DNA of 64,000 nt from an uncultured Gaiellales bacterium. Its GTDB lineage: Bacteria > Actinomycetota > Thermoleophilia > BMS3ABIN01. Made by a program: the position numbers and the translations under genes. The notes under the pieces are model-generated. The model had not been told where the DNA came from. It searched no databases and was given only the letters and a program-made list of their open reading frames with translations. Positions 1,251 through 55,831 of this stretch are shown here, piece by piece (the stretch's first letter is position 1; the number at the start of each line of letters is the position of its first letter). The DNA lies in assembly GCA_964497425.1 (NCBI GenBank), contig CAZCCR010000005.1:206-64205 (forward strand). The letters run 5' to 3'.

Positions 1251-1276
1251 TTGTTAATTCGTTAAGGAACGTCCCC
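1251..1276. repeat. Solo copy of the 26-nt motif TTGTTAATTCGTTAAGGAACGTCCCC; it overlaps the last codons and stop of the fusion gene
   Basis: Exact match to the right arm of the inverted pair at 281-306. It supplies the ...DVP-stop C-terminus of CDS 1262-3913. Confidence 0.6.
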
Positions 1277-12446: not shown

Positions 12447-13151
12447 ATGAGCAAACGAGCCGCGTTCTGGATATTCATCATCGGCACCGCCTCCTCCCTG
12501 GCGATCTTCCTGTTCCTGACCTGGGACACTCACCACCAGGTCGATGTGCTCACCCACGCCGACAGGCTCAGCGAACAGGTGGTTGCGGGAAAGCACGTCT
12601 GGGAGAAGAAGAACTGCAACAACTGTCACACCATCCTCGGTTTCGGCGTCTATTACGCCCCCGACCTGACCAACGTATACCAGCGCATCGGCGCCGACGG
12701 CATCATCGCCTCCGTGCAACGCCCGGAGGAGGTATATGCCGGCTCCTTCCGCAAGATGCCCAACCTGGGCGTGACAGACCAGGAAGCGCAGGACCTGGTC
12801 GCCTTCCTGGAATGGACAGGCAACATCGAGAACAACGACTGGCCGCCACAGGACAGGAACCGGGCGCTCTCGTCGGAGGAGCGGCGGCTGGCAGGCACCG
12901 GCCTGTCCCTGGGAGCCATCGCCTTCAAACAGGAATGCATGGGCTGCCATTCCATCGGCGGCGTCGGAGGCGGCACCGGCCCGGCCCTCGACGATATCGG
13001 CGACAGGTACGACGCAGTGACCATCGCCAGGTATATCGGCGACCCGACGTCGGTGGACCCCGGCTCGAGAATGCCGGCGCAAAGCTCCGTCAGCGATGAC
13101 GACCGGACGGAGATCGGAATATTCCTGGCAAAACAGGGAGGTGATCGATAA
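12447..13151 (+). CDS. norC: Nitric-oxide reductase cytochrome c subunit, NorC-like, fused to a second class-I cytochrome c domain (diheme)
   Basis: 234 aa with an N-terminal TM helix. Heme motifs CNNCH and CMGCH. NorC-like GKHVWEKKNCNNCHT...APDL. The second domain has C.GCH...GP.L...MP. Confidence 0.75.
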   Translation: MSKRAAFWIFIIGTASSLAIFLFLTWDTHHQVDVLTHADRLSEQVVAGKHVWEKKNCNNCHTILGFGVYYAPDLTNVYQRIGADGIIASVQRPEEVYAGSFRKMPNLGVTDQEAQDLVAFLEWTGNIENNDWPPQDRNRALSSEERRLAGTGLSLGAIAFKQECMGCHSIGGVGGGTGPALDDIGDRYDAVTIARYIGDPTSVDPGSRMPAQSSVSDDDRTEIGIFLAKQGGDR

Positions 13152-14548
13152 TGGCAGCCAATGAAGCTGTGATCGCGAACAACGCTGCGGATGCTGGTTC
13201 CAGAGAGGACGGTTCTGTCCCCTACAGCTCACAGACCGTGGCCTACTGGTACTTCCTCATCGCCTTGGCCCTGTTCGTCCTCCAGATCGTCGTGGGCATC
13301 TGGCTGGCGATAAGTTACGCCTTCACCATCCCCCAGAACATAGTCGACGTCCTGCCTTTCGGCATGACCAGGGCCATGCATACCAACCTGCTGGTGCTGT
13401 GGCTGTTGCTGGGGTTCATGGGCGGAGCCTACTATCTTGTGCCAGAAGAGACCGAAAGAGAGATATTCAGCGTCAAGCTGGCCTATCTCCAGTTGATCAT
13501 CCTGGTAGTGACCGGTGTCGCCGCCCTTATCGGGTTCGCCTTCGGCTGGACCCAGGGGCGTCCCATCCTGGAGATACCCACCCTGCTGGATTTCTTCATC
13601 GTCATCGGCGCCCTCATCTTCCTGTTCAACGTCGGCATGACGGTCATCAAGGGTAAGAAGAACGCCATCACCGGCATGTTGCTGGGCGGCCTGGTCTTCC
13701 TGGCGTTGCTCTATCTGTTCGGCATGCCCTTCTACCGCAACCTCACCATCGACTGGTTCTACTGGTGGTGGGTGGTGCACCTGTGGGTGGAGGGCGCCTG
13801 GGAGCTGGTGACCGCCGCCATCCTGGCCTTCGTGCTGTACAAGGTGACCGGTGTCAGGCGACAGGTAGTGGAGAAGTACCTCTACCTGGAGACAGCGCTC
13901 TTTCTGTTCACCGGCATCGCCGGCACCGGTCATCACTACTACTGGCTGGGTACGCCCCGGGCCTGGCTCTGGGTCGGCGGCATCTTCAGCGCCATGGAGG
14001 TGATCCCCATCATCGCCATGGTGGTGGATACCTTCCTCACCCACCGGCGTGAGGGCACGCAGATCAGGAACAAGGTGGTCTGGACCTTCGCCGTAGGCAC
14101 GGCCGTGGGACACCTGATCGGCGCCGGCGCCTGGGGCTTCGTCCACACCCTGCCCCAGATCAACTACTACACCCACGGCAGCCAGGTGACTGCCAGTCAC
14201 GGACATGTAGCCTTCTACGGAGCCTATGTGCTGCTCAATCTGACCATGTTCTGGTATGCCATCCCCCGGCTGCGCGGCAGGATGAACTCCAGTACCGGAG
14301 GCGCCTACTGGGGCTTCTGGATCATGGGGCTGTCGGTGATCGGTCTGGGCACCGCCTTCGGCATCGCCGGCGTGCTGCAGACATACATCGAGCGTGTGAT
14401 GGGGCTGGGCTTCATGACCGCACAGGGCCAGATGCAGTTCTGGTTCAAGGTCGCCATCTTCTTCGGCGCCAGCCTGCTCATCGGCGCTCTGGTCACCTTC
14501 TGGAGCATGTTCCTCAGCAGGAGCACGAGTACGGATACGGCAGGCTGA
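13151..14548 (+). CDS. norB: Nitric-oxide reductase large subunit (heme-copper oxidase family, cNOR NorB-like)
   Basis: 465 aa, 12 TM helices. WWVVHLWVEGAWE, GHHYYW and HGHVAFYG are His ligand motifs. Start overlaps the norC stop. Confidence 0.8.
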   Translation: MAANEAVIANNAADAGSREDGSVPYSSQTVAYWYFLIALALFVLQIVVGIWLAISYAFTIPQNIVDVLPFGMTRAMHTNLLVLWLLLGFMGGAYYLVPEETEREIFSVKLAYLQLIILVVTGVAALIGFAFGWTQGRPILEIPTLLDFFIVIGALIFLFNVGMTVIKGKKNAITGMLLGGLVFLALLYLFGMPFYRNLTIDWFYWWWVVHLWVEGAWELVTAAILAFVLYKVTGVRRQVVEKYLYLETALFLFTGIAGTGHHYYWLGTPRAWLWVGGIFSAMEVIPIIAMVVDTFLTHRREGTQIRNKVVWTFAVGTAVGHLIGAGAWGFVHTLPQINYYTHGSQVTASHGHVAFYGAYVLLNLTMFWYAIPRLRGRMNSSTGGAYWGFWIMGLSVIGLGTAFGIAGVLQTYIERVMGLGFMTAQGQMQFWFKVAIFFGASLLIGALVTFWSMFLSRSTSTDTAG

Positions 14549-35578: not shown

Positions 35579-35686
35579 TCCTGACCATCCATATCAGAGT
35601 CCCCGGCCGGCCTGCCGTCCCGATGCAGGCATTCTATCAGCTAAGGATGTGTCCACGGTGGAAAAACTAACACTTTAACAGGGTCA

Positions 35687-35715
35687 TTGACAATATCAGC
35701 CAAACTGATAGTATT
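35687..35715 (+). promoter_or_regulatory. Candidate promoter (TTGACA, 16-17 nt spacer, TAGTAT) for the hydrogenase locus
   Basis: -35 at 35687-35692; -10-like at 35709-35715. Confidence 0.35.
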
Positions 35716-35816
35716 CAGGCGAAACCGACCTGGAAGGACAAATTGGATTCTTTTTGGGGAGGATACAACAGCGGAGACAGGGCCTGCAACGGGATTCGCA
35801 TGGCCGTAAGGACCAG

Positions 35817-35850
35817 GACCGGTGCGTGAAAAGCACCGGTCTTTTTCTTT
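35817..35850 (+). terminator. Intrinsic terminator/attenuator hairpin in the hydrogenase leader
   Basis: GACCGGTGC-GTGAAAA-GCACCGGTC followed by TTTTTCTTT, about 210 nt upstream of the small-subunit ATG. Confidence 0.55.
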
Positions 35851-36063
35851 GCCGTCTCCCCCGGGATGGCTGACAGGAAGGCATCGGTTCCCGGCCGGAG
35901 GACAGGAAGACGTCCACCGCTGGAGATGATGATTGCCCCAGGGGCAGGGAAAAGCCCCGGAGCCGTCAAAAATATATGAAACATGACTGGGAAAGGAGCC
36001 GCCTATGGCTGCATTCAAACGGCCGGTGTGTTTTTGGAAGAAGCATTGAAAGAGGAGAGCATT

Positions 36064-37128
36064 ATGCACTACAACATCAGCAGACGCGACTTCCTCAAGC
36101 TGTGTGGCGGTACAGCGGCGATGCTCGGACTCTCCCAGGCCTGGGTGCCGCAGATCGCCAGGGCACTGGAACAGGCGGCCAAACGTCCGCCGGTGGTCTG
36201 GCTGAGTTTCCAGGGCTGCTCCGGCTGCTTTGAATCACTGGCCAAGGCCCAGTACCCGGATGTGGCTTCCATCGTCCTTGACGTCATCAGCCTCAACTAC
36301 CAGGAAGTAATCATGGCGCCCGCGGGTTCCCTCGCTGAGAAGAACCTTGCGGACACCGTCGCCGCCGGCGGATACGTTACGCTGGTGGAGGGGGCCGTCG
36401 CCACCGAAATACCTGAGGCTATGATGGTCGCCGGCAGGACTTCCCAGGAGATAGTCAAGGAAGTGGCTGAAGGCGGCGCGGCTACTATCGCCGTGGGAAC
36501 CTGTGCGACCTACGGCGGGGTCCAGGCCATGAAGCCCAACCCCACGGGAGCCAAGGGCGTCAGGGACGTCATCAGCACCCCCGTGGTCAACGTCCCCGGC
36601 TGCCCGGTGAACCCGGATACACTCGTTTCCACCATCACCTACTACCTGCTGCACAAGCAGGCGCCGCCCATGGACGGTGAAGGCAGGCCCAAGTTCGCCT
36701 TCAGCCAGAAGGTGCACGAGAACTGCCAGCGCCGGGCCCATTTCGACGCCGGCGAGTACGTGGAGCAGTACGGCAGCGAGGAAGAGGCCAAACACTATTG
36801 TCTGTACAAGATGGGCTGCAAGGGTCCGGAGACCCACTCACCCTGCCCCCTGACACTGTGGAACAGCAAACAGAACTGGTGCGTCGGCTGCGGCAACGGC
36901 TGCATCGGCTGCATGGAGCCGGATTTCTGGGACAAGTTCGCCGGCTTCTATGAAAGGCTGCCCAACGTGCCGGTGCCCGGTTTCGTCGGCGTCAAGTCCT
37001 CGGCGGACTATATCGGTTCAACCCTGGTGACGGCCACCATGGCCGGTATCGGCATACATGCCATCGCCACCGCCGCCAAGGGCAGGTTCAAGGAAAAGGA
37101 TGACATATCGGAAGGGAGTGATAACTGA
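36064..37128 (+). CDS. [NiFe(Se)]-hydrogenase small subunit (Tat signal, C-terminal membrane anchor)
   Basis: Twin-arginine signal SRRDFLK; proximal-cluster motifs GCSGC and GTCATYGG...GCP; distal H..C..C. The medial region NWCVGCGNGCIGC has extra Cys. C-terminal TM helix. The ORF track starts upstream at 35983. Confidence 0.9.
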   Translation: MHYNISRRDFLKLCGGTAAMLGLSQAWVPQIARALEQAAKRPPVVWLSFQGCSGCFESLAKAQYPDVASIVLDVISLNYQEVIMAPAGSLAEKNLADTVAAGGYVTLVEGAVATEIPEAMMVAGRTSQEIVKEVAEGGAATIAVGTCATYGGVQAMKPNPTGAKGVRDVISTPVVNVPGCPVNPDTLVSTITYYLLHKQAPPMDGEGRPKFAFSQKVHENCQRRAHFDAGEYVEQYGSEEEAKHYCLYKMGCKGPETHSPCPLTLWNSKQNWCVGCGNGCIGCMEPDFWDKFAGFYERLPNVPVPGFVGVKSSADYIGSTLVTATMAGIGIHAIATAAKGRFKEKDDISEGSDN

Positions 37129-38744
37129 TGGCCAGAGTCGTAGTAGACCCGGTGACCAGGCTGGAGGGTCACCTGCGCATCGAGGTCGAAGTGGACAACG
37201 GCGTGGTCAAGGACGCCTGGGCCAGCACCACCCTCTTCCGTGGTTTTGAGATCTTCATCAAGGACCGCGACCCGCGGGACGCCTGGCATATCGCCCACCG
37301 CATCTGCGGTGTCTGCCCAACCTCTCATGGCATCGCCGCCACCCAGGGGCTGGAGGACTCCTTCGGAGTCACGCCTCCGGACAACGCGGTGCTTGTTAGG
37401 AACCTGATGGAGATAGCCCAGTACCTGCATTCCCATGTCCTCTGGTTCTACGGCCTCAACGCCTTCGACTATGTGGATGTGGTCAGCGCCCTGTCGGCCG
37501 AAGCTTCCACACCGGCGCTGAAGGCGGTGCAGGAGCGCCTGCAGGCCTTCGTCGACAGCGGCCAGCTGGGCTTTCTCGCCAACGGCTACTGGGGTCATCC
37601 GGCGATGCTGCTGCCGCCCGAGGTCAACCTGGAACTGGCCGCCCATTACCTGCAGGCACTGGACATCCAGGCCAAGGCGGCGCGGGCGCTTGCCGTTTTC
37701 GGCGGCAAGTTCCCTTACCACATGTCTACGCCTCCGGGCGGTGTCACCACCATCCCCACACTCGAGGATGTCAACAACTACGAGACCATCATGAAAGAGG
37801 TGAACGACTTCGTCCTCAACGTGATGGTGCCGGATACGCTGGCGGCGGGTGCCGCCTATATCGACCTGGCCAAGATCGGCTCCGGTGTAGGCAATTTCTT
37901 CACCTGGGGCGTACTGGAAGACGCCCAGAGCCGCGATCCCTACCAGCGGGCGCTGCCGCGCGGCGCCATCTTCGGCGGAAAGCTCGCCGTGGAACAGGTC
38001 ACTCCGGCGGACGCGGTGGAATACGTCAGCCACAGCTGGTACACACCGGACTCCGGCGGCGGCAAGAACCCGGGCGACGAGGACGCCACCACCGAACCTC
38101 AGTACACCGGCATGCCTGAGCAACTGACCCCGGATGACAAGTACACCTGGACCAAGACGACGCAGATAAAGGACAACCAGATGGAGGTAGGCACCCTGGC
38201 GCGCATGCTCATCGCTTACCTCTCGGACGCGCCCGGCGCCAAGAAGATCGTCGACGACGCCCTGGCTGCGCTGGGAGCCTCCGGCCAGCCGGAGATACTG
38301 GTATCGGCCCTTGGCCGCCTGGCGACCAAGCCGCTGGAAGCGGCGCTGATCACCCAGAAGATGGAGAAGGACCTGGCCATGCTCAAGGAGAACATCGTCG
38401 CCGGCAAGAGCGAATGGTTCACACCCAACGAGGTCCCCGACAGCGGTGAGGGGGTGGGCGCCTGGGACGCCCCGCGCGGCTCCCTGGCCCACTTCCACCG
38501 CATCGAGGACGGCAAGATCGCCAACTACCAGGCGACGCCGGCCTCCAACTGGAACTTCTCCGCCCGTGACGACAGCGGCGCGCGCGGACCGGTGGAGGAA
38601 GCGCTGGTCGGCACACCGGTGGCCGACCCGGAGAAACCGCTGGAGATACTGAGGGTTGTTCACACCTTCGACCCATGAATCGCCTGCGCGGTTCACGTGA
38701 TTGAACCGAAAAGCAACAAGGTCTACAAGTTCCAGGTCCGTTAG
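37128..38744 (+). CDS. [NiFeSe]-hydrogenase large subunit; selenocysteine encoded by in-frame TGA 38676-38678 (ORF track truncates at 38678)
   Basis: N-terminal Ni-binding RICGVC. Translation through the TGA gives DP-U-IACAVH followed by a 15-aa tail and TAG at 38742-38744, restoring the conserved DPCxxCxxH C-terminal motif with Sec. Confidence 0.75.
38679..38710 (+). other. Putative bacterial SECIS hairpin immediately 3' of the UGA-Sec codon
   Basis: GGTTCA-CGTGAT-TGAACC (38690-38707), a perfect 6-bp stem with a hexaloop, beginning 11 nt after the UGA. Confidence 0.45.
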
Positions 38745-38756
38745 GTGGTGGGAGAC

Positions 38757-39467
38757 ATGGAAGACCGGGTAAACGTAAAACAGAGACATTGGGTCTACAT
38801 CCTGCTCCACTGGCTGATAGTCAGCGTCGTCAGCCTGCTTGCCTTCACCGGTCTCTACATACACCGGCCCTTCTTCAGCCTCGGCTCCGCCGGGGAGCCG
38901 GTGCTTGTGATGTCGTGGATACGCTGGATCCATTTCATCGCTGCGGCCGTCCTGATAGAGACCGTCGCCATCCGGCTGGAACTGTCCTTCTTCTCGCACT
39001 TCGATGCCGACTGGAAGGACGTGGGTCCCAGCAGGAAGAACTTCAGGGCCCTGCCGGAAGCCGTATCCTACTACCTGTTCGCCAGGGATGACCATCGTTA
39101 CTGGCGGAAGCTGAACCCCATCATGAACACCATACTGATACCGATCGCCCTGCTTTTCTACCTGATCGCGATCCTGACGGGGTTCGCCCTCTTCCAGGGC
39201 TCATTCTTCTGGGGCCTGACGACAACCAATACCCTCTTCGGCTGGGTCTATTCGGTCTTCGGAGGCCAGCAGGCGACCAGGAACTGGCACTACTACCTGG
39301 TGTGGGTGTTCGCTATATACGCCGCGTTCCATGTATATCTCGCCATATTGCGGGCGACGAGGGAACGGGACAACACCTTCGGCAGCATGCTCAACGGGTG
39401 GAGACTGGTTCCGCGCAAGTATGCACCCATCAAGGGTGGTTCGGACAGGGAAGACAAGAGGAAGTGA
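38757..39467 (+). CDS. Ni/Fe-hydrogenase b-type cytochrome subunit
   Basis: About 236 aa, 4 TM helices, with conserved His/Trp (HWLIVS, WIHFIAA, YYLVWVF..FHVY). Start taken at ATG 38757, just after the extended large-subunit stop. Confidence 0.8.
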   Translation: MEDRVNVKQRHWVYILLHWLIVSVVSLLAFTGLYIHRPFFSLGSAGEPVLVMSWIRWIHFIAAAVLIETVAIRLELSFFSHFDADWKDVGPSRKNFRALPEAVSYYLFARDDHRYWRKLNPIMNTILIPIALLFYLIAILTGFALFQGSFFWGLTTTNTLFGWVYSVFGGQQATRNWHYYLVWVFAIYAAFHVYLAILRATRERDNTFGSMLNGWRLVPRKYAPIKGGSDREDKRK

Positions 39468-39482
39468 GGCTCAGAAGGACAG

Positions 39483-40031
39483 ATGTCCAGTATAGATGAA
39501 CTGGACGCCCCGGGACCAGGTCCCGGGGCGTCCCCCGGCATCGCAACATGTGACCTCCTGGTACTTGGTGTCGGCAACGTCATGATGGGAGACGAAGGCG
39601 TCGGCGTGAAGGTCGCCAGAAACCTCATCAAGGACTACGAGTTCCCGCCTGGCGTCGAGGTGGTGGACGGCGGCACCGGCGGACTCGCCCTGTTGTCATT
39701 TATCCTCCATGCCCGCGAGGTGCTGGTCATCGACGCAGTGGAAGCCGGAGCCGAGCCCGGGAGCATATTCATCTTTCCCGCCCGCAGCATACAGGAGCGC
39801 AAGGGCATCATGACCTCCCTTCACGATATGGGGATCCTCGACGTCCTCAGCACCGCCGGGCTCCTGGGCGGCAACCCCCCCGCCACCGTCATAGGCGTAC
39901 AACCGGCTAAGATGGACGAATTCGGCGGCGGTCTCTCTCCCCGGGTGGCGAACAAGATACCGCGGGTGACCGAACTCGTGCTTGAGCACCTGGAAAAAGC
40001 CGGCCATCCGGCCCGGGCAAAAGGAAGCTAG
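39483..40031 (+). CDS. hyaD: Hydrogenase maturation endopeptidase (HyaD/HybD family)
   Basis: LVLGVGNVMMGDEGVGV...DGGTGG...VIDAV is the family signature. Confidence 0.8.
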   Translation: MSSIDELDAPGPGPGASPGIATCDLLVLGVGNVMMGDEGVGVKVARNLIKDYEFPPGVEVVDGGTGGLALLSFILHAREVLVIDAVEAGAEPGSIFIFPARSIQERKGIMTSLHDMGILDVLSTAGLLGGNPPATVIGVQPAKMDEFGGGLSPRVANKIPRVTELVLEHLEKAGHPARAKGS

Positions 40032-40035
40032 TACC

Positions 40036-40377
40036 TTGCACGAGTACGCCGTCACCGAGAGCATCCTGAAGATAGTGCATGAGGAAGCCGGCAAGGCCGG
40101 TGGAGAGCGCGTCGAGAGCGTCACCATAGTCATCGGCGAGCTGTCCACCTTCGTGGACCAGTCCATCGAGTTCTATTTTCAGGCTCTTTCACAAGGAACT
40201 GTCGCCGAAGGGGCCCGGCTCATCTTCGAGAAGGTGAAGGCAAGGGCCGTCTGCGGTGACTGCGGCAAGGAATTCGAGCCCAGCCGCGTCTGCCTTACCT
40301 GCCCCCGATGCCATTCGCCCTTATTCGAGGTAAAGCAGGGCAGGGAGCTTTATATCGACAACCTGGAGATACACTGA
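40036..40377 (+). CDS. hypA: Hydrogenase nickel-incorporation protein HypA
   Basis: Begins MHEYAVTESIL from a TTG start. Zn-finger CGDCG...CPRC. Confidence 0.8.
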   Translation: MHEYAVTESILKIVHEEAGKAGGERVESVTIVIGELSTFVDQSIEFYFQALSQGTVAEGARLIFEKVKARAVCGDCGKEFEPSRVCLTCPRCHSPLFEVKQGRELYIDNLEIH

Positions 40378-40399
40378 CACCGGGAAGGGATGACTGAGC

Positions 40400-41053
40400 A
40401 TGAGGATCGATGTCAAGAAGAATATCCTGGAGAGCAACGATGCCCTGGCCGCCGCCAACCGCGAGAGATTGAAGCGACATGGCGCCAGCATGCTGAACCT
40501 GATGGCCTCCCCCGGCGCCGGCAAGACCAGCGTCATCATCAAGGCCATCGAAGGCGCTGCCGGCGACCCCGCCATTGCCGTCATCGAGGGAGACATCGCT
40601 TCCGAGATCGATTCCCTTGCCATCGAGGCCCTGGATATCCCCGCCATCCAGATAAACACGGGTGGGTCGTGCCACCTGACAGCGTCCATGATCGGTGCGG
40701 CCCTCGACCATCTGGACCTGGATGCCCTGGATATCATCATCATCGAGAACGTGGGCAACCTGGTCTGTCCCGCCGAGTTCGACCTTGGGGAGGATTTCCG
40801 GGTGATGATCTCCAGCATCGCCGAAGGACACGACAAGCCATACAAGTACCCCCTGATGTTCCGTGAAGTGGACGCGGTGCTGGTGAACAAGATCGACCTG
40901 GCCCCCTTCTGCGACTTCGACATGGGCCAGTTCCGCCGCGTCGTGGGCGAACTCAACCCCGAGGCGGCCATCATCGAGATGTCATGCACGGAGGGACAGG
41001 GCACGGATGAATGGAGCCGCTGGCTCTCGGGGATCTCAGCCACGGTCAGATAG
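40400..41053 (+). CDS. hypB: Hydrogenase nickel-incorporation GTPase HypB
   Basis: P-loop SPGAGKTS; ENVGNLVCP; NKIDL. Confidence 0.9.
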   Translation: MRIDVKKNILESNDALAAANRERLKRHGASMLNLMASPGAGKTSVIIKAIEGAAGDPAIAVIEGDIASEIDSLAIEALDIPAIQINTGGSCHLTASMIGAALDHLDLDALDIIIIENVGNLVCPAEFDLGEDFRVMISSIAEGHDKPYKYPLMFREVDAVLVNKIDLAPFCDFDMGQFRRVVGELNPEAAIIEMSCTEGQGTDEWSRWLSGISATVR

Positions 41054-41098
41054 TCGTTTCGAGTCCGGGCGCCAAGGCCCGGGAATACGGGGAAAGGG

Positions 41099-43465
41099 AT
41101 GTCAGCCACTGAGCAGTCCACAACCGGGAATGTCCGCTTCGCGGTCTCCGTCACCGGGGTCGTACAGGGGGTCGGTTTCCGTCCCTTCATCCACCAGCTG
41201 GCCACGGACAGCGGGCTGGCCGGTTTCGTGCTCAACACGTCCGGAGGCGTGACCATCGAGGTCGAGGGCTTACGGGACCGGATCGACGGTTTCATCACCG
41301 GTATCCGCGAGAAGGCTCCTCCCCTGGCCCGCATCACCGATATCAGTGTCGAGCCTGTCAAGGCCAGGGGTGGCGACGGTTTCTCCATCCTGCCATCCAC
41401 CGCCCAGCCGGGACAGCGCCAGCTGGTGAGCCCCGACAGCTGCACCTGCGACCTCTGCCTGGAGGAGATGCGTGACCCCGGCGACCGCCGCTACCGCTAT
41501 CCTTTCATCAACTGCACCAACTGCGGTCCCCGTTTCACCATCATCGAGGGTCTCCCCTACGACCGGCCCCTGACGACCATGCGCAAGTTCACCATGTGCC
41601 CCCAGTGCCTGTCCGAGTATGAGGACCCCGGCGACCGCCGTTTCCACGCCGAGCCCAACGCCTGTCCCAGCTGCGGGCCCAGCCTCTGGCTGGAGGACGG
41701 CTCCGGGACGATGGTGCCTGTCCGGGACGCCATCGAAGAGTCTGCGGCCGCTCTGTCCCGGGGACAGATAGTGGCCATCAAGGGCCTGGGCGGGTTCCAG
41801 CTGGCATGCCTGGCAACGGACGAGGAAGCCGTCAGACGCCTGCGGAGGCGCAAGCACCGGCCGCACAAGCCGTTCGCTCTCATGTCCGGCAGTGTGGAGG
41901 ATGTCTCCCTTTACTGCCGGATGTCCCCTGAAGAGGAAGAACTGCTGGCCTCCCCCCAGCGCCCTATCGTGCTGCTGGAGTCGCTCCCGGACAACGGCAT
42001 AGCAGCCTCCGTCGCCCCGGCGCTGGACCACCTCGGTTTCATGCTGCCCTGTACCCCCCTGCACTTCCTGTTGACGGACTCGGCGCCGGGTCCACTGGTG
42101 ATGACCAGCGGTAATATCAGCGATGAACCCATCTGCCGTACCAACACGGAGGCTGTCAGCAGGCTGAGCGGCATCGCCGACCTGTTCCTTCTGCATAACC
42201 GGGGGATACGTTCTACCTATGACGACAGTGTCGTGATGGTCGAGCAGGGCAGGACGGTGATGCTCCGGCGGGCAAGGGGTTACGCGCCGCTGCCGGTCAA
42301 ACTTCCCCATGGGTCGGGAGATACCATCCTCGCCACCGGCGCCGACCTCAAGAGCAGCTTCAGCCTCACGGTGGGTGACGACTGTTTCGTCTCCCAGCAC
42401 ATCGGTGACCTGGACAACGCCGAGACCCTCTTCCATCTGGAATATACCGAATCCCTCTACGAACAGCTCTTTCAGGCCCCGCCATCCCGTTTTGCCTGTG
42501 ACCGCCATCCCGGTTACCTCTCTTCCGCCTACTGTCTGGAACACTCCCCCTCGCCGCTGAAGATCCAGCATCACCGGGCTCATGTTGCTTCATGCCTTGC
42601 CGACAACGGCTGCTCCGGCGACGCGATCGGGGTGGCTATGGACGGCACCGGCTTCGGTGACGACGGCAGCATCTGGGGCGGCGAGTTCTTTACCGGCAGT
42701 ATCGCCGGCGGATTCGACCGCGCCGCACAGATCCAGGGTTTCCCCCTGCTGGGCGGTGAAGCAGCCATCCACGAACCCTGGCGTACCTCCCTGGCCCTTG
42801 TCTGGAAACATTCATCGGAGAACCTCGATCCCATAGCCGAACGTTTCCGCCTGGCCGGTCCAAGGAAGAAGCTACTGCTCAGGCAGCTGGAGGGAGGACT
42901 CAACTGCCCCACCACATCCAGCTGCGGCCGGCTGTTCGACGCCGTAGCAGCTCTGGCCCTGGGACGCACCGAGGTGAGTTTCGAGGCGCAGGCCGCCATG
43001 GAACTGGAGGTCGCCGCAAGGCGCTGCGCCGCCGCCGAAGGCGGCGGCGCAGCGCCCCCGTCCCTTTCAGAGTCCCTGCCCTACCGTCTCTCCCTGGACC
43101 GGCGGCCGGCCGTCTGGCGGCTCTCTCCTTCCCGCCTTGTCGCCCGGTTGATCGATGACCTTTTGTCGGACAAGGACCCCGGTTATATCGCCCTGCAGTT
43201 CCATCTTGCCCTCGCTGACGGCATCGTCCGCGTCTGCCGTCACCTGTCGGAGCGGAACGGACTCAATTCCGTCGCCCTTAGCGGTGGCTGCTTTCAAAAC
43301 AGATTACTGCTGCGCCTGGTATGCGCCGGACTCGAGCAAAACTCGCTTACGCCGCTACTTCACCGCCAGGTGCCTCCCAATGACGGTGGCATCACCCTGG
43401 GCCAGGCGGCGATCGCCGCCTGCGCGGACAAGGACCTTTCTTCTGGAAAGTCCTCTCCGAAATGA
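41099..43465 (+). CDS. hypF: Carbamoyltransferase HypF
   Basis: 788 aa. Acylphosphatase domain; two CxxC...CxxC Zn fingers; YrdC domain; Kae1-like carbamoyltransferase domain. Confidence 0.9.
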   Translation: MSATEQSTTGNVRFAVSVTGVVQGVGFRPFIHQLATDSGLAGFVLNTSGGVTIEVEGLRDRIDGFITGIREKAPPLARITDISVEPVKARGGDGFSILPSTAQPGQRQLVSPDSCTCDLCLEEMRDPGDRRYRYPFINCTNCGPRFTIIEGLPYDRPLTTMRKFTMCPQCLSEYEDPGDRRFHAEPNACPSCGPSLWLEDGSGTMVPVRDAIEESAAALSRGQIVAIKGLGGFQLACLATDEEAVRRLRRRKHRPHKPFALMSGSVEDVSLYCRMSPEEEELLASPQRPIVLLESLPDNGIAASVAPALDHLGFMLPCTPLHFLLTDSAPGPLVMTSGNISDEPICRTNTEAVSRLSGIADLFLLHNRGIRSTYDDSVVMVEQGRTVMLRRARGYAPLPVKLPHGSGDTILATGADLKSSFSLTVGDDCFVSQHIGDLDNAETLFHLEYTESLYEQLFQAPPSRFACDRHPGYLSSAYCLEHSPSPLKIQHHRAHVASCLADNGCSGDAIGVAMDGTGFGDDGSIWGGEFFTGSIAGGFDRAAQIQGFPLLGGEAAIHEPWRTSLALVWKHSSENLDPIAERFRLAGPRKKLLLRQLEGGLNCPTTSSCGRLFDAVAALALGRTEVSFEAQAAMELEVAARRCAAAEGGGAAPPSLSESLPYRLSLDRRPAVWRLSPSRLVARLIDDLLSDKDPGYIALQFHLALADGIVRVCRHLSERNGLNSVALSGGCFQNRLLLRLVCAGLEQNSLTPLLHRQVPPNDGGITLGQAAIAACADKDLSSGKSSPK

Positions 43466-43496
43466 TATATGGTCATAGGAACAACGGAGGCGTCCC

Positions 43497-43730
43497 ATGT
43501 GCCTGGCAGTCCCGGCGAGGATAACCAAGATCGACGACCAGATGGCCACCGTCGAGGTGGGCGGGATAACCCGTGATGCTTCTACCGTCCTCCTGCCCGA
43601 TGCAGGCGTCGGCGACTATGTATTGATACACGCCGGCTTCGCCATCTCCCTCGTTGACGAGGACGAGGCCCTTGAGACCATCAGGCTGTTCGACGAGATG
43701 GCCGCCGCCGGCGACACCGATCCGGACTGA
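43497..43730 (+). CDS. hypC: Hydrogenase assembly chaperone HypC
   Basis: 77 aa starting MCLAVP. Confidence 0.85.
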   Translation: MCLAVPARITKIDDQMATVEVGGITRDASTVLLPDAGVGDYVLIHAGFAISLVDEDEALETIRLFDEMAAAGDTDPD

Positions 43731-43734
43731 GACC

Positions 43735-44823
43735 ATGCCCCTCACCTTTCTCGACGATTTCCGCAGCGCTCCCCACGTCCAGCGCATGCTCCAGGAGCTG
43801 GACGGCCACACCGGCCTGGAGCTGAAGATCATGGAGGTCTGTGGCACCCATACCATGGCCATCTCCCGCCATGGCATCCGCCAGGCGGTGCCGGAAGGAA
43901 TCACCCTCATATCAGGGCCCGGCTGTCCCGTCTGCGTCACCGCCAACGCCGATATCGACCGATTCATCGAGACGGCCCTCATACCCGGCGTCATCGCCGC
44001 TTCCTTCGGCGACATGCTGCGGGTGCCCGGAACCAGGATGGGCCTGGCGGAAGCACGCAGCCACGGCGCCGACGTGCGCATCGTCTACTCCCCCCTGGAT
44101 GCCCTCGCCATGGCGCGCGACAACCCGGGCCGCGACGTGGTCTTCTTCGGCGTCGGCTTCGAGACCACGGCGCCCACGGTAGCCGCCACGGTGATGGCGG
44201 CTCGGGAGCAGGGCCTGGACAACTTCTACATCCAGCCGGTACACAAGCTGGTCCCTCCCGCCCTGGAGGCCCTCTGCGCCCTTCCCCGGCTGGCCATCGA
44301 CGCCTTCCTCTGTCCCGGTCACGTCAGCGCCATCATCGGGCCCGGTGCCTATGAGGCGATCGCGTCGGAACATGAGGTCCCCTGCGTCATCGCCGGCTTC
44401 GAACCTGTGGATATACTTCAGGCCCTGTCCATGCTGGCTGTGCAGGTCGAAAGCGGCCGCGCCGATGTCGAGCTGCAATACACACGGGGTGTCAGGGCCG
44501 CGGGCAACCCGGAGGCGATGGCGCTCATGTACCAGGTATTCGAGACCGCCGACGCGGAGTGGCGCGGGCTGGGGACCATCCCCGGCAGCGGTCTGGTTCT
44601 CAGGGAAGAGTACTCCGGCTTCGACGCCGGCGTGCACTATCAGGTTGATACCAGCTACTCTCGCGAGCCCAGGGGATGCATCTGCGGTGAGATACTGACC
44701 GGCCTGAAGACGCCGCGGCAATGCGGCCTGTTCCGCAAGGCTTGCGACCCGGATCACCCGGTTGGGCCGTGCATGGTATCCTCCGAGGGCACCTGCGCCG
44801 CCTATTTCCAGTATGAAGACTGA
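43735..44823 (+). CDS. hypD: Hydrogenase maturation factor HypD
   Basis: CGTHT, GPGCPVCV and FGVGFETTAPT motifs. ATG at 43735; the ORF track extends it upstream to 43654. Confidence 0.9.
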   Translation: MPLTFLDDFRSAPHVQRMLQELDGHTGLELKIMEVCGTHTMAISRHGIRQAVPEGITLISGPGCPVCVTANADIDRFIETALIPGVIAASFGDMLRVPGTRMGLAEARSHGADVRIVYSPLDALAMARDNPGRDVVFFGVGFETTAPTVAATVMAAREQGLDNFYIQPVHKLVPPALEALCALPRLAIDAFLCPGHVSAIIGPGAYEAIASEHEVPCVIAGFEPVDILQALSMLAVQVESGRADVELQYTRGVRAAGNPEAMALMYQVFETADAEWRGLGTIPGSGLVLREEYSGFDAGVHYQVDTSYSREPRGCICGEILTGLKTPRQCGLFRKACDPDHPVGPCMVSSEGTCAAYFQYED

Positions 44824-45829
44824 CGGGGGTGAAAAGGTCCTGCTGGCTCATGGCAGCGGCGGCCGCCTGACCCAGGAGCTGATCCGGTCCCGCTTCAGCC
44901 CCGCTCTGTCCAACCCCATCCTCGACCGCATGGAGGATTCCGCCACCATCGAGGCGCAGGGCAGGCTGGCCTTCACCATCGACAGCCATGTGGTCTCCCC
45001 ACTCTTCTTCCCCGGCGGTGATATCGGCCGCCTTTCCATCACCGGCACCGTCAACGACCTGGCCATGGCCGGCGCCCGGCCCCTTTACATCTCAGCCGGG
45101 TTCATCATCGAGGAGGGCCTGGGCCATAAGGAACTGGCACGCGTCGTCTCATCCATGAGCGGGGCCGCAGCGGAAGCCCGTGTCGATGTCGTCGCCGGTG
45201 ATACCAAGGTGGTGGAACGCGGCGCTGCGGATGGACTTTTCATCACCACCAGCGGTATCGGCATCATCCCCGACGGCGTCCGCCTCTCCGCCTCAGCCGT
45301 CTGCCCGGGAGACGCTGTCATCGTCAGCGGCACCATCGGCGACCACGGCGTCGCCATTCTCAGCCGGCGGCAGGGTATGGATTTCGAGGCGCCGGTAAGC
45401 AGTGACTGCGCTCCCCTCAACGACCTGGTGGAAGTGATGTTGGGAGCTTCCGGGAAGATACATGCTCTCAGGGACCCCACCAGGGGAGGCCTGGCGGCAA
45501 TACTCAACGAGATCGCCACCGCCTCTTCCGTAGCCATCGAGGTGGACGAGGGACTCATACCATACCGCTCAGAGGTCAGGGCCGCCTGCGAGCTGCTGGG
45601 ACTGGACCCCATGGTTCTGGCCAACGAAGGGAAACTGGTGGCCTTCGTCGCCGAGCAGGACGCCGGCAAGGTGCTGCGCGCGATGAAGGCACATGATCAT
45701 GGAACAGAGGCGGCCGTTATCGGAAGGGTGGAAAAGGCCGACAGGCCGCGGGTCTATGTGCGCACCCTGCTGGGCAGCCGCCGCGTCCTGGCCATGCCCA
45801 GCGGCGAACAATTGCCCCGCATCTGCTGA
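44813..45829 (+). CDS. hypE: Hydrogenase maturation factor HypE
   Basis: PurM-like fold with a C-terminal PRIC motif. ATG at 44813 overlaps the hypD stop. Confidence 0.9.
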   Translation: MKTDGGEKVLLAHGSGGRLTQELIRSRFSPALSNPILDRMEDSATIEAQGRLAFTIDSHVVSPLFFPGGDIGRLSITGTVNDLAMAGARPLYISAGFIIEEGLGHKELARVVSSMSGAAAEARVDVVAGDTKVVERGAADGLFITTSGIGIIPDGVRLSASAVCPGDAVIVSGTIGDHGVAILSRRQGMDFEAPVSSDCAPLNDLVEVMLGASGKIHALRDPTRGGLAAILNEIATASSVAIEVDEGLIPYRSEVRAACELLGLDPMVLANEGKLVAFVAEQDAGKVLRAMKAHDHGTEAAVIGRVEKADRPRVYVRTLLGSRRVLAMPSGEQLPRIC

Positions 45830-53493: not shown

Positions 53494-54507
53494 CTATATC
53501 CTCCGGTCCACCGTAGCGGCGGCGATCAGCTCCAGGGGAGCTGTGTCGATGCTGCCGGCCGTCTCTGCCAGCGACTCCAGGGCCTTGCCCACATAGGCCT
53601 GGGCCTCTCTCCGGGCGCCTTCCAGCGCTCCGCTCGACCGCACCCTGTTTATGACCTCCGACACACGCCTGTCGTCCATCTCTCCCTCCAGAAGCCCGGC
53701 CAGGCTTTCGTCAAGTTCCATGGCGAGTATCAGCGGCAGGGTGACGGTACCGTCCCTCAGGTCGACACCGGTGCCTTTCCCGGTCAGCTCCGTCTCCTCC
53801 GAGAAATCAAGCATATCATCGGATATCTGGAACGCCAGACCGATGCAGCTTCCGAACGCCGCCATGGCCTCGACAACGTCACTGCTGCAACCCGACAGCA
53901 CCGCGCCCAGGCGGCAGGAGGTGGCGAACAGGCTTGATGTCTTCATGCGGCAACGCTCCTCATAGGAATCGCGGCCGAGAGAGAAATCACCGGCGGCGGC
54001 CATCTGCATCAACTCCCCCCTGCTCAGGTCCTCGCTGGTCTGCGTCAGCAGCGACACACAGCGGGAAGAACCCGTGGACGCCAGCACATCGAAGGCCGAG
54101 GCGAAAAGGTAATCCCCGGCCGCTATGCTCACTTCCCGCCCGTAGCGGGACACCACCGTAGGCTGGCCCCGCCTCAACTCGGCTTCATCGAGCACGTCAT
54201 CGTGTACCAGGGTTGCCATATGCACCATCTCCACAGCCGCCGCCGCAGCGTAGTGCTCATGGGAGAACTCGAAACCGGCGCGGGTCGAGAGGAAAACCAG
54301 CAGCGGCCGCAGGCGCTTGCCGCCGGCCTCGAGGGTCATCCCTGAGGACCGGGACAGCTTGCCGCCGGGCATATCTGTTATCTCCGCCATCCTCTGTTCG
54401 CTGCGAGCCAGGTGCGGCGCGTAGCGTTCCCAGTAGCGCTCCTTGAACAGCTCCAGGGCATCCCTGCCGCCGGCGACTTCACCCGCCTGCCTGCCGGCGC
54501 TGTTCAT
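53494..54507 (-). CDS. Polyprenyl diphosphate synthase (trans-IPPS)
   Basis: First Asp-rich motif LVHDDVLDE; second ISDDMLD. ATG 54505-54507 overlaps the ubiE stop; the ORF track extends to 54729. Confidence 0.8.
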   Translation of the reverse strand: MNSAGRQAGEVAGGRDALELFKERYWERYAPHLARSEQRMAEITDMPGGKLSRSSGMTLEAGGKRLRPLLVFLSTRAGFEFSHEHYAAAAAVEMVHMATLVHDDVLDEAELRRGQPTVVSRYGREVSIAAGDYLFASAFDVLASTGSSRCVSLLTQTSEDLSRGELMQMAAAGDFSLGRDSYEERCRMKTSSLFATSCRLGAVLSGCSSDVVEAMAAFGSCIGLAFQISDDMLDFSEETELTGKGTGVDLRDGTVTLPLILAMELDESLAGLLEGEMDDRRVSEVINRVRSSGALEGARREAQAYVGKALESLAETAGSIDTAPLELIAAATVDRRI

Positions 54508-55229
54508 GCCGTACCCCGGTGCAGGGCGATGATGCTTCCGGCCATCAGGCGGTACGAGACATCGGACAGTCCCGCCTCCGCCATCACCTGCGCCAGCCTG
54601 TCCGCCGGCGGGAAACGCCGCACCGAGGCCGGCAGGTAGGAATAGGCGCTCCTGTCCCTGGACACAACCCTGCCCAGAGCCGGGACAACACGGTCGAACC
54701 AGATGCCGAAAAAGCGGTTGAACGGCCACCGCGTCGGACTGGTTATCTCCAGGCAGACCACCCTGCCCCCGGGGCGGGTGACCCGCGCCATCTCGGAAAA
54801 GGCCTTTCCCAGGTCGGGGATGTTGCGTACGCCGAAGCCGACCGTGACGGCATCGAAACTGCCGTCTTCGAATTCCAGCGCCGTGGCGTCCCCCCAGCGG
54901 AAGTCGACCGGCGCCCCCCGTTCGCGGGATTTCTCCCGGGCCACATCGAGCATGGGGCGGCTGAAGTCCACGGCCACCACCCTGCCACCGGGGCCCGTCC
55001 TCTTCTCGAGCTCGAAGGCGAAGTCACCGGTGCCGCAACAGACATCAAGGACGCTGTCCCCCGGGAAGACCGCGGCGGCTTCCACTCCCAGACGGCGCCA
55101 CCTGCGGTGCATGCCCGCCGTCATCAGGCTGTTCATCAGGTCATAGCGGCGGGCGATGGCTCCGAACATGCCGCGGACCCGTTCGGGATCGGGACCGGCC
55201 AGCCCCGGCTGCCGGGCGCCCGCGCTCAT
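54504..55229 (-). CDS. ubiE: Demethylmenaquinone/ubiquinone C-methyltransferase
   Basis: 241 aa. SAM motif VLDVCCGTGD; UbiE/MenG family N-terminus. Confidence 0.85.
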   Translation of the reverse strand: MSAGARQPGLAGPDPERVRGMFGAIARRYDLMNSLMTAGMHRRWRRLGVEAAAVFPGDSVLDVCCGTGDFAFELEKRTGPGGRVVAVDFSRPMLDVAREKSRERGAPVDFRWGDATALEFEDGSFDAVTVGFGVRNIPDLGKAFSEMARVTRPGGRVVCLEITSPTRWPFNRFFGIWFDRVVPALGRVVSRDRSAYSYLPASVRRFPPADRLAQVMAEAGLSDVSYRLMAGSIIALHRGTA

Positions 55230-55831
55230 CCTGTCCCCTGCCAGCGCCGGAAGAGCTCATGGCTGACGCCGATGGAATCCAGCACCTTGCCGGCGACGAA
55301 ATCAGCCAGGTCTTCGATGGTCCGGGGGTGATGATAATAAGCCGGCATGGCCGGGATCAACAGGGCGCCGGCACGCCTCGCCGCCAGCATGTTCCGCAGG
55401 TGGATTTCACTCAGCGGCGTCTCGCGCGGCACCAGCGCCAGCGGCCGCGATTCCTTCAGCATCACATCAGCGACGCGGTGGATGAGGTTTCGGGTAATCC
55501 CGTTGGCGACCGAAGCCAGGGAGGACATGGAACAGGGACAGACGACGGCTGCATCCGCCATGGCGCTGCCGCTGGCGAACTCGTTTGCCATATCACCGGG
55601 TTCGACCAGGCGTTCCAGGGAGCGGGTAAGGCCGTGGCGTTCACCGAAGCCTTTGATCACGCCGGCACGGTCCATACCGCCTGTCGCGGACAGCTCCTCG
55701 GCTCGCATGACATCGACGGCGCCATCGGATATACAGGTGGTGACGTCCAGGTCCGGCCGCTCCAGGGCCCTCAGCAGGCGGCCACCGTAGATCACGCCGC
55801 TGGAGCCGGTGATTCCGACAAATATCCTCAT
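55226..55831 (-). CDS. ubiX: Flavin prenyltransferase UbiX
   Basis: 201 aa. GITGSSG...; PCSMSSLA. Confidence 0.85.
   Translation of the reverse strand: MRIFVGITGSSGVIYGGRLLRALERPDLDVTTCISDGAVDVMRAEELSATGGMDRAGVIKGFGERHGLTRSLERLVEPGDMANEFASGSAMADAAVVCPCSMSSLASVANGITRNLIHRVADVMLKESRPLALVPRETPLSEIHLRNMLAARRAGALLIPAMPAYYHHPRTIEDLADFVAGKVLDSIGVSHELFRRWQGTG

Follow-up and report, generated by a model that had tools for sequence, protein, structure and literature searches.

A membrane-bound, selenocysteine-type uptake hydrogenase predicted in an uncultured Gaiellales bacterium and the mostly uncultured clade to which it belongs

The 64-kb stretch of DNA analysed here and termed the window (64,000 nucleotides; contig CAZCCR010000005.1 of assembly GCA_964497425.1, positions 206 to 64,205, from an uncultured Gaiellales bacterium) carries a hydrogenase operon on its forward strand. 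This operon very probably encodes a membrane-bound, outward-facing respiratory H2-uptake hydrogenase that would hold selenocysteine (Sec) at its nickel site and feed menaquinone. A small subunit with a twin-arginine translocation (Tat) signal, a Sec-type large subunit, a hairpin resembling a selenocysteine insertion sequence (SECIS) and a b-type cytochrome are all encoded within 36064-39467, with matches far above chance. The original prediction had seen a Sec-type large subunit combined with a HyaC-like cytochrome b and a small subunit that is exported through Tat and anchored in the membrane, and had recognised in this the arrangement typical of group 1 uptake hydrogenases that reduce quinones; the motifs and alignments agree. 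It had also called such a combination in a high-GC organism unusual, and this is not supported: a widespread clade of mostly uncultured organisms has this layout as its norm, and the enzyme is an ordinary, divergent new member of it.

The large-subunit gene (37128..38744, + strand; 538 codons including that for Sec) overlaps the stop codon of the small-subunit gene by 1 nt (TGATG). Its product matches PF00374 with an E value of 1e-155, has NF033181 as its best NCBIfam match and was also compared with hydrogenase structures in the PDB. The mechanically called open reading frame (ORF) stops after ...RVVHTFDP at a TGA (38676-38678, + strand), and the same frame continues as IACAVH-VIEPKSNKVYKFQVR-TAG. 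Because IACAVH follows in frame, the C-terminal nickel-binding motif DP[C/U]xxCxxH is restored, with the UGA at its first Cys position. Both of the L1/L2 motifs that the original prediction had singled out for checking were found, the N-terminal one as RICGVCPTSH and the C-terminal one as DP-U-IAC-AVH. The 15-residue tail VIEPKSNKVYKFQVR would be of the type cut off by a maturation protease. A UGA at the first Cys of DPCxxCxxH with the remainder of the motif in frame is what generally defines a [NiFeSe] hydrogenase, and the arrangement is identical in 10 other Sec-type loci, the TGA standing at the same position in L001, L002, L003, L081/L082, L083/L084, L085, L086, L087 and L088. Third-position G+C is 0.85 before the TGA and 0.76 after it, which is coding level. 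A scan of the window for other selenoprotein candidates with an in-frame TGA returned this gene only, the rest being adjacent-gene or wrong-frame artefacts. We infer that Sec is inserted at this UGA.

Downstream of the UGA lies a SECIS-like hairpin (38689..38708, + strand), CGGUUCA-CGUGAU-UGAACCG, which begins 10 nt past the codon; its stem has 7 bp and its 6-nt loop includes GU. A stem-loop shortly 3' of the UGA is what a bacterial SECIS calls for, and the geometry fits such an element, with that of E. coli fdhF as the standard. The GGUUCA...UGAACC core is unchanged in 9 of the 10 Sec-type loci, the proteins of which are only about 50-60% identical. More specifically, L083 shows a single stem change, from a U-A to a U-G pair, and in the Coriobacteriia loci L002 and L003 the differences in the core are confined to the loop; at the foot of the stem the window has a C-G pair and these two loci a G-C pair. 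Third-codon-position conservation reaches 0.9-1.0 within the hairpin, against a mean of 0.59 over the 15 upstream codons. The identity of the hairpin together with this conservation of synonymous sites is a signature of selection on RNA structure. No Rfam family corresponds to the hairpin, and at gathering thresholds Rfam returned only a tRNA-Pro from the whole window. The same stretch in Cys-type genes folds as well (mean -13.1 versus -11.9 kcal/mol).

The small subunit (36064..37128, + strand; 354 aa) was aligned to 1H2A_S, 8POU_S and 4GD3_S and matches PF01058 (E 1.4e-26), PF14720 (E 2.2e-29) and the hydA model TIGR00391 (363 bits, cutoff 179.5). Its gene is preceded by a Shine-Dalgarno sequence, AAGAGGAGAG, 6 nt 5' of the ATG at 36064. 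The N-terminus of the protein, MHYNISRRDFLK..., fits the Tat signal model TIGR01409 (26.5 bits, cutoff 16.7), with the motif SRRDFLK and a signal comprising residues 1-34; the AxA cleavage site, between ARA and LEQ, lines up with the point at which mature D. vulgaris Miyazaki HynA (1H2A_S) starts. At the other end of the protein, hydropathy identifies residues 317-338 as the only strong C-terminal hydrophobic segment. This anchor helix (IGSTLVTATMAGIGIHAIATAA; encoded at 37012..37077, + strand) aligns position-for-position, His332 included, with the membrane anchors of HoxK from R. eutropha and HyaA from E. coli. A similar C-terminal tail with a His in the helix is found in all of the other small subunits compared (17 of 17).

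The ligands of the three iron-sulfur (Fe-S) clusters can be assigned as Cys52, Cys55, Cys147 and Cys180 (proximal), His218, Cys221, Cys246 and Cys252 (distal) and Cys261, Cys273, Cys280 and Cys283 (medial). Within the medial set, NW-C273-V aligns with NW-P-V of D. vulgaris Miyazaki and also with the Pro/Cys position of R. eutropha HoxK, so that a fourth medial Cys replaces the Pro of [3Fe-4S] enzymes, as expected of a [NiFeSe] hydrogenase. Characterised [NiFeSe] hydrogenases likewise have a fourth medial-cluster Cys. The medial Cys is present in 10 of 10 other small subunits of the clade, whether Sec- or Cys-type, and the Pro in 7 of 7 other group 1 enzymes. With Cys273 at the medial cluster, the relay is predicted to consist of three [4Fe-4S] clusters, and this is probably its composition. 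Assignment to the O2-tolerant group 1d was considered and rejected: the proximal cluster has four Cys, and GCSGC/TYGGVQ stands where HoxK has CTCC/SWGCVQ, with Gly at both of the extra positions. As a separate observation, the medial motif (residues 273-283, nt 36880-36912) reads C-V-G-C-G-N-G-C-I-G-C and includes an extra Cys276 common only to the window and L001, the relative closest to it; at this position the other members of the clade carry Ser, Ala or Ile.

The third gene encodes a HyaC-family b-type cytochrome (38745..39467, + strand; 240 aa from a GTG at 38745), for which an alternative ATG start exists at 38757 with GGGAG 3 nt upstream. The protein matches PF01292 (64 bits, cutoff 30; E 1.5e-17) and, less fully, TIGR02125. 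Residues 20-221 align full-length with E. coli HyaC (4GD3_A, to residues 20-223; E 6.8e-11), and the candidate haem ligands His22, His63, His182 and His196 all fall on HyaC histidines. Hydropathy gives four transmembrane helices (19-37, 53-71, 130-148 and 184-202), with the ligands in the first, the second and, twice, the fourth. Topology and histidines thus bear out the HyaC-like character proposed in the original prediction, and because the 4GD3_A alignment is full-length and covers all four His, a cytochrome b non-homologous to HyaC is excluded. The four His are kept in 15 of 16 cytochrome b homologs from related loci, Salmonella Hyd-1 included. The Tat signal, the C-terminal anchor and the adjacent HyaC-family cytochrome b together reproduce the HyaABC/HoxKGZ/HydABC layout. 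We infer haem binding by the cytochrome, a quinone acceptor and the direction of catalysis. Elsewhere in the window (53494-55831, - strand), genes were noted for a HepT/solanesyl-like synthase of long-chain polyprenyl diphosphates and, close to it, a UbiX-family flavin prenyltransferase; both fit isoprenoid quinone synthesis and are consistent with a quinone acceptor for the hydrogenase.

The structural genes form part of a single, compact cluster on the + strand (36064-45829) in which they are followed by a protease gene and hypABFCDE. The protease is a HyaD/HybD-type maturation endopeptidase (39483..40031; PF01750; TIGR00072 140.6 bits, cutoff 47.45). Family matches identify hypA (ORF from 39982, likely start about 40036, end 40377), hypB (40400-41053), hypF (41099-43465) and hypD (likely start about 43735, end 44823). 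The hypC (43497-43730) and hypE (likely start about 44813, end 45829) ORFs are probable assignments made by recognition of their sequences, HypE by its LLAHGSGG and C-terminal PRIC motifs. All of these genes lie on the + strand.

A course of events may be proposed from these components. The UGA at 38676-38678 would be read as Sec through SelB-dependent recoding directed by the hairpin 10 nt downstream. HypABCDEF would assemble and insert the Ni-Fe(CN)2CO centre, after which the HybD-like protease would cut the large subunit past the His of the AVH motif and remove 15 residues. The small-large dimer would then be exported via Tat on the twin-arginine signal of the small subunit and be held at the membrane by its C-terminal helix. 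H2 would be split at the outer face of the membrane, with electrons passing via the three Fe-S clusters to the dihaem cytochrome b, which would reduce menaquinone, and the resulting redox loop would add to the proton-motive force. In Firmicutes, equivalent clusters have been taken to encode [NiFeSe] hydrogenases of the periplasm that include a cytochrome b subunit (PMC5113046).

Upstream of the small-subunit gene lies a 485-bp leader (35579-36063) in which three conserved elements were noted by comparison with L081 (4490-4882) and L001 (about 2490-2936). The first resembles an extended -10 promoter and reads TTGACA-16-TAGTAT (35687-35714), and the second is a 45-nt block nearly invariant in these two close relatives. 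The third, about 215 nt 5' of the start codon, is a GC-rich hairpin of 11 bp with TTTTT after it (35815-35848). A 145-nt stretch of the leader folds much better than its shuffles (z = -4.2), and the leader matches no Rfam family. It may be a transcription attenuator or a leader RNA for the hydrogenase operon.

How widespread the combination is was assessed from the best 120 large-subunit matches of a search of 5.8 billion proteins. Among these, 46 end at ...DP, the Sec position, and 74 carry DPC. The small subunit/Sec large subunit/cytochrome b layout recurs in all 10 of the other distinct Sec-type loci inspected, each of which has a TGA followed by xxCxx[H/Q], the hairpin, an upstream Tat small subunit and a downstream PF01292 cytochrome b, and a protease gene is present in all nine Sec-type contigs long enough to show one. 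Thus, Sec together with cytochrome b is the rule in this clade. The loci come from an uncultured metagenome-assembled genome (MAG) (L001, 86% identity), bacterium BMS3Abin01 (L081/L082), which is the closest genome with a name and which NCBI places no further than unclassified Bacteria, a "Deltaproteobacteria" MAG (L083), a JGI metagenome (L085), a Thermaerobacter sp. MAG cluster (L086), an ENA metagenome (L087), a Fidelibacterota MAG (L088) and Coriobacteriia MAGs (L002 and L003). Sec-type relatives in the Coriobacteriia and Thermaerobacter MAGs also argue against any oddity in a high-GC host; the window itself has a G+C content of 0.59-0.66 throughout. The closest labelled relative among the matches listed is a Gaiellales MAG, and synteny between the BMS3Abin01 locus and the window extends from cinA, pgsA and HTH-protein genes on the upstream side as far as hypD. 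A UPF0182-family gene, typical of Actinobacteria, is also present in the window; on the strength of this gene and the Gaiellales relative, the enzyme is probably actinobacterial.

A cytochrome b also accompanies L089, a Cys-type member of the clade. In a library clustered at 50% identity the best match was P0091, a Cys-type clade member with 52% identity, so that much of the clade probably falls into this one cluster; P0134, another cluster of Sec type (49% identity), is distinct, as is P0175, the cluster of HysA. When a genome collection was scanned with peptides of the large subunit, most of the loci returned were distant group 1 members of 39-45% identity, and only L001-L003 were informative. 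Two individual loci deserve mention in their own right. In L002 (JAUSBS010000082.1, 5555-5590) the large subunit reads DP-U-VGC-GVQ, with Gln replacing the final His of the nickel motif before the protease cleavage site, and the hairpin loop is altered to match (CAG GTC, not CAC GTG); real variation, gene decay or misassembly could each account for this. The Fidelibacterota locus L088 (3677-5040) is a Sec-type operon with two tandem PF01292 cytochrome b genes of 226 aa each.

Among known systems, the nearest in description are three-gene clusters of cultured Firmicutes, which had already placed the combination on record. In Syntrophaceticus schinkii the periplasmic [NiFeSe] cluster (SSCH_30031/33032/33033) comprises a Tat small subunit, a large subunit and a cytochrome-b-like subunit and is syntenic in Thermacetogenium phaeum, Carboxydothermus hydrogenoformans and Desulfosporosinus orientis (PMC5113046); in T. 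phaeum, Tph_c06350-06370 are described as a three-gene periplasmic [NiFeSe] hydrogenase (PMC3551663). As judged from these published descriptions, the clusters resemble that of the window in comprising three genes and in being read as outward-facing and membrane-associated. They belong to a different phylum, however, and the maturation genes lie elsewhere in the S. schinkii genome, whereas protease and hypABFCDE genes directly follow the structural genes in the window.

The HysAB enzymes of Desulfovibrio and Desulfomicrobium (2WPN, 5JSH, 1CC1, 4KL8; NF045518) share with the window Sec at the same ligand, a Tat-exported small subunit and the fourth medial-cluster Cys. HysAB is soluble or lipoprotein-anchored and reduces cytochrome c3. 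Unlike the operon in the window it comes without a cytochrome b gene, and the HysB chain 2WPN_A aligns only to residue 297 of the small subunit, with no counterpart of its anchor. The view in the original prediction that characterised [NiFeSe] enzymes are periplasmic or cytoplasmic and lack a cytochrome b partner was broadly right, and it is explained by parts of the field that still restrict [NiFeSe] hydrogenases to a small number of sulfate-reducing deltaproteobacteria (PMC4730141). Membership of the HysAB family itself was rejected on the scores of the large subunit with NF045518 (390.5 bits, cutoff 780) and of the small subunit with NF045520 (246 bits, cutoff 470). The large subunit is 34% identical to the HysA-family representative P0175, which itself scores 835 bits on the HysA model, and it aligns with 466 bits to standard Desulfovibrio [NiFe] enzymes (1FRF, 1H2A) versus about 280-294 bits to the [NiFeSe] enzymes 5JSU, 1CC1 and 2WPN. 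By its predicted active site the enzyme is thus a [NiFeSe] hydrogenase, and by these scores it is not a HysAB member.

E. coli Hyd-1 (HyaABC; 4GD3) and the membrane-bound hydrogenase of R. eutropha (MBH, HoxKGZ; 8POU, 3RGW) resemble the window in their Tat signal, His-bearing anchor, HyaC-type cytochrome b and endopeptidase. They differ in having Cys at the nickel site, a six-Cys proximal cluster and a medial Pro ([3Fe-4S]), where the window enzyme has Sec, Gly at both extra proximal positions and Cys, respectively; the large subunit scores about 330-390 bits against their structures. In HydDB, [NiFeSe] variants are placed in group 1a and a Coriobacteria-type group 1i is defined (PMC5037454). 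Cultured Anaerosomatales (Anaerosoma tenue and Parvivirga hydrogeniphila) possess group 1i large and small subunits with a cytochrome b and a protease, read as quinone-linked (PMC9686372). Group 1i resembles the window in that the genes for both subunits, a cytochrome b and a protease form an actinobacterial cluster, interpreted as feeding quinone; Sec goes unmentioned for it in PMC9686372 and PMC5037454. The Coriobacteriia loci L002 and L003 share the TGA position, the hairpin and the cytochrome b gene with the window. Coriobacteriia-type enzymes are the next closest named relatives of the window enzyme, at 48-51% identity. The best match to NF033181 and the four-Cys medial cluster point indirectly to a position near group 1a. 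One paper on Wood-Ljungdahl Actinobacteria contained nothing on this enzyme.

Several observations weigh against the reading of the operon as a Sec-dependent, quinone-linked uptake hydrogenase. Two family scores lie under their cutoffs, that of the cytochrome b with TIGR02125 (114.8 bits, E 3.7e-33, cutoff 121.5) and that of the large subunit with NF033181 ('NiFeSe_hydrog'; 521 bits, cutoff 600), which is nevertheless its best NCBIfam match; these scores mark both proteins as divergent members. NF033181 is itself a broad model, since Cys-type relatives (612-625 bits) and the HysA-type P0175 (644 bits) pass it, with Sec-truncated relatives at 588-594 bits, and the branch to which the window belongs is on these scores a divergent neighbour of that family. 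The hairpin region folds no better than shuffled sequence (z = -0.54), and because folding energy alone is unremarkable the SECIS call rests on conservation. ARAGORN, Rfam and gene scans detected no tRNA-Sec, selA, selB or selD in the 64-kb window, so the capacity to decode Sec is read solely from the conserved UGA and hairpin. Finally, the direction of catalysis is not set by sequence, the analogous S. schinkii cluster being expressed under H2-producing conditions (PMC5113046), and the literature search found no biochemical data on any member of the clade.

In the strongest alternative, the same architecture would work physiologically in reverse or in both directions, evolving H2 or cycling hydrogen via reverse electron transport from menaquinol. 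Enhanced H2-production activity is attributed to [NiFeSe] enzymes in PMC13582414, and the three-gene cluster of S. schinkii is transcribed in H2-producing syntrophic conditions (PMC5113046). By established thermodynamics, however, menaquinol falls far short of the reducing power needed to form H2 from protons and could do so only at the expense of proton-motive force; all characterised group 1 enzymes with Tat export and a cytochrome b anchor act primarily in uptake (HydDB Table 1, PMC5037454), and the window contains no syntrophy-type partner genes. Reverse or bidirectional function is accordingly improbable. It is a good deal less likely still that the UGA is decoded as Cys, by a non-canonical tRNA-Cys with SelB or by some other readthrough, to yield an ordinary [NiFe] hydrogenase. 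That no Sec machinery was seen in the window would suit such decoding, but the hairpin has what we take to be bacterial SECIS geometry, and UGA and hairpin are maintained across several phyla beside lineages that use plain TGC/TGT, which implies some selective benefit of the recoded residue. The reading of the TGA as a true stop or an assembly error, leaving a pseudogene or an inactive truncated protein without two of its four metal ligands, could appeal to public gene calls of Sec-type relatives, all of which end at ...DP and, where named, are plain nickel-dependent large subunits, but it is effectively refuted by the comparative data, since the 21 in-frame codons after the TGA encode exactly the missing xxCxxH and a normal protease-cleaved tail, the same arrangement occurs in independent NCBI, ENA, JGI and Logan assemblies, third-position G+C stays at coding level and the accessory genes are all intact.

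Two further parts of the window encode putative redox proteins. A dihaem c-type cytochrome gene (234 aa) is followed at once by a gene for a 465-aa haem-copper-oxidase-family subunit I (12447-14548, + strand), which scores 214 bits with PF00115 and only 42 bits with the cbb3 CcoN model and is, on these scores, a divergent oxidase or an NO-reductase-like enzyme. The pair hints at O2 or nitrogen-oxide respiration and could provide a sink for H2-derived electrons. At 1262-3913 (- strand) an 883-aa protein carries two CDGSH iron-sulfur domains together with one Fer4_19 and one Rieske [2Fe-2S] domain, all fused to a complete thiamine-diphosphate enzyme that is matched best by pyruvate oxidase (390 bits, below cutoff); such a redox-domain extension on an enzyme of this kind is unusual.

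The evolutionary history of Sec in the clade invites a more speculative proposal. A neighbour-joining tree was built from BLOSUM62 distances; it carries no support values and serves for grouping, not to tell which way Sec and Cys were exchanged. In it the Sec-type lineages branch off at the base as a paraphyletic set, with the Coriobacteriia on a basal branch of their own, and the sampled Cys-type sequences form one nested group. This topology suggests that Sec might be ancestral in the clade and have been replaced by Cys later. The actinobacterial/Thermaerobacter branch might also couple its Sec-hydrogenase to micro-aerobic or nitrogen-oxide respiration, given the dihaem cytochrome c and haem-copper-oxidase-family genes in the window. 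Only a small likelihood is attached to these proposals; the second, if true, would mean O2-resilient H2 oxidation by selenium chemistry rather than by a six-Cys proximal cluster.

The combination of a Sec-type hydrogenase with a cytochrome b has been on record in genome papers since at least 2012-2016, and its layout is standard for a large clade. The gene calls of all 46 Sec-type large subunits among the best 120 stop at the TGA, and the named ones appear as 'nickel-dependent' or '[NiFe]'; surveys of predicted proteins therefore undercount [NiFeSe] hydrogenases and may score such proteins as defective. The selenoprotein status of the clade is thus invisible in protein databases. To our knowledge, the [NiFeSe] hydrogenases characterised structurally or kinetically are all HysAB-type or cytoplasmic methanogen enzymes, and we know of no quinone-linked Sec-hydrogenase with a cytochrome b that has been purified. 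This clade, with its near-invariant SECIS hairpin, would be where to look for such an enzyme, in which one could study how Sec affects catalytic bias and the recovery from O2 of a respiratory complex.

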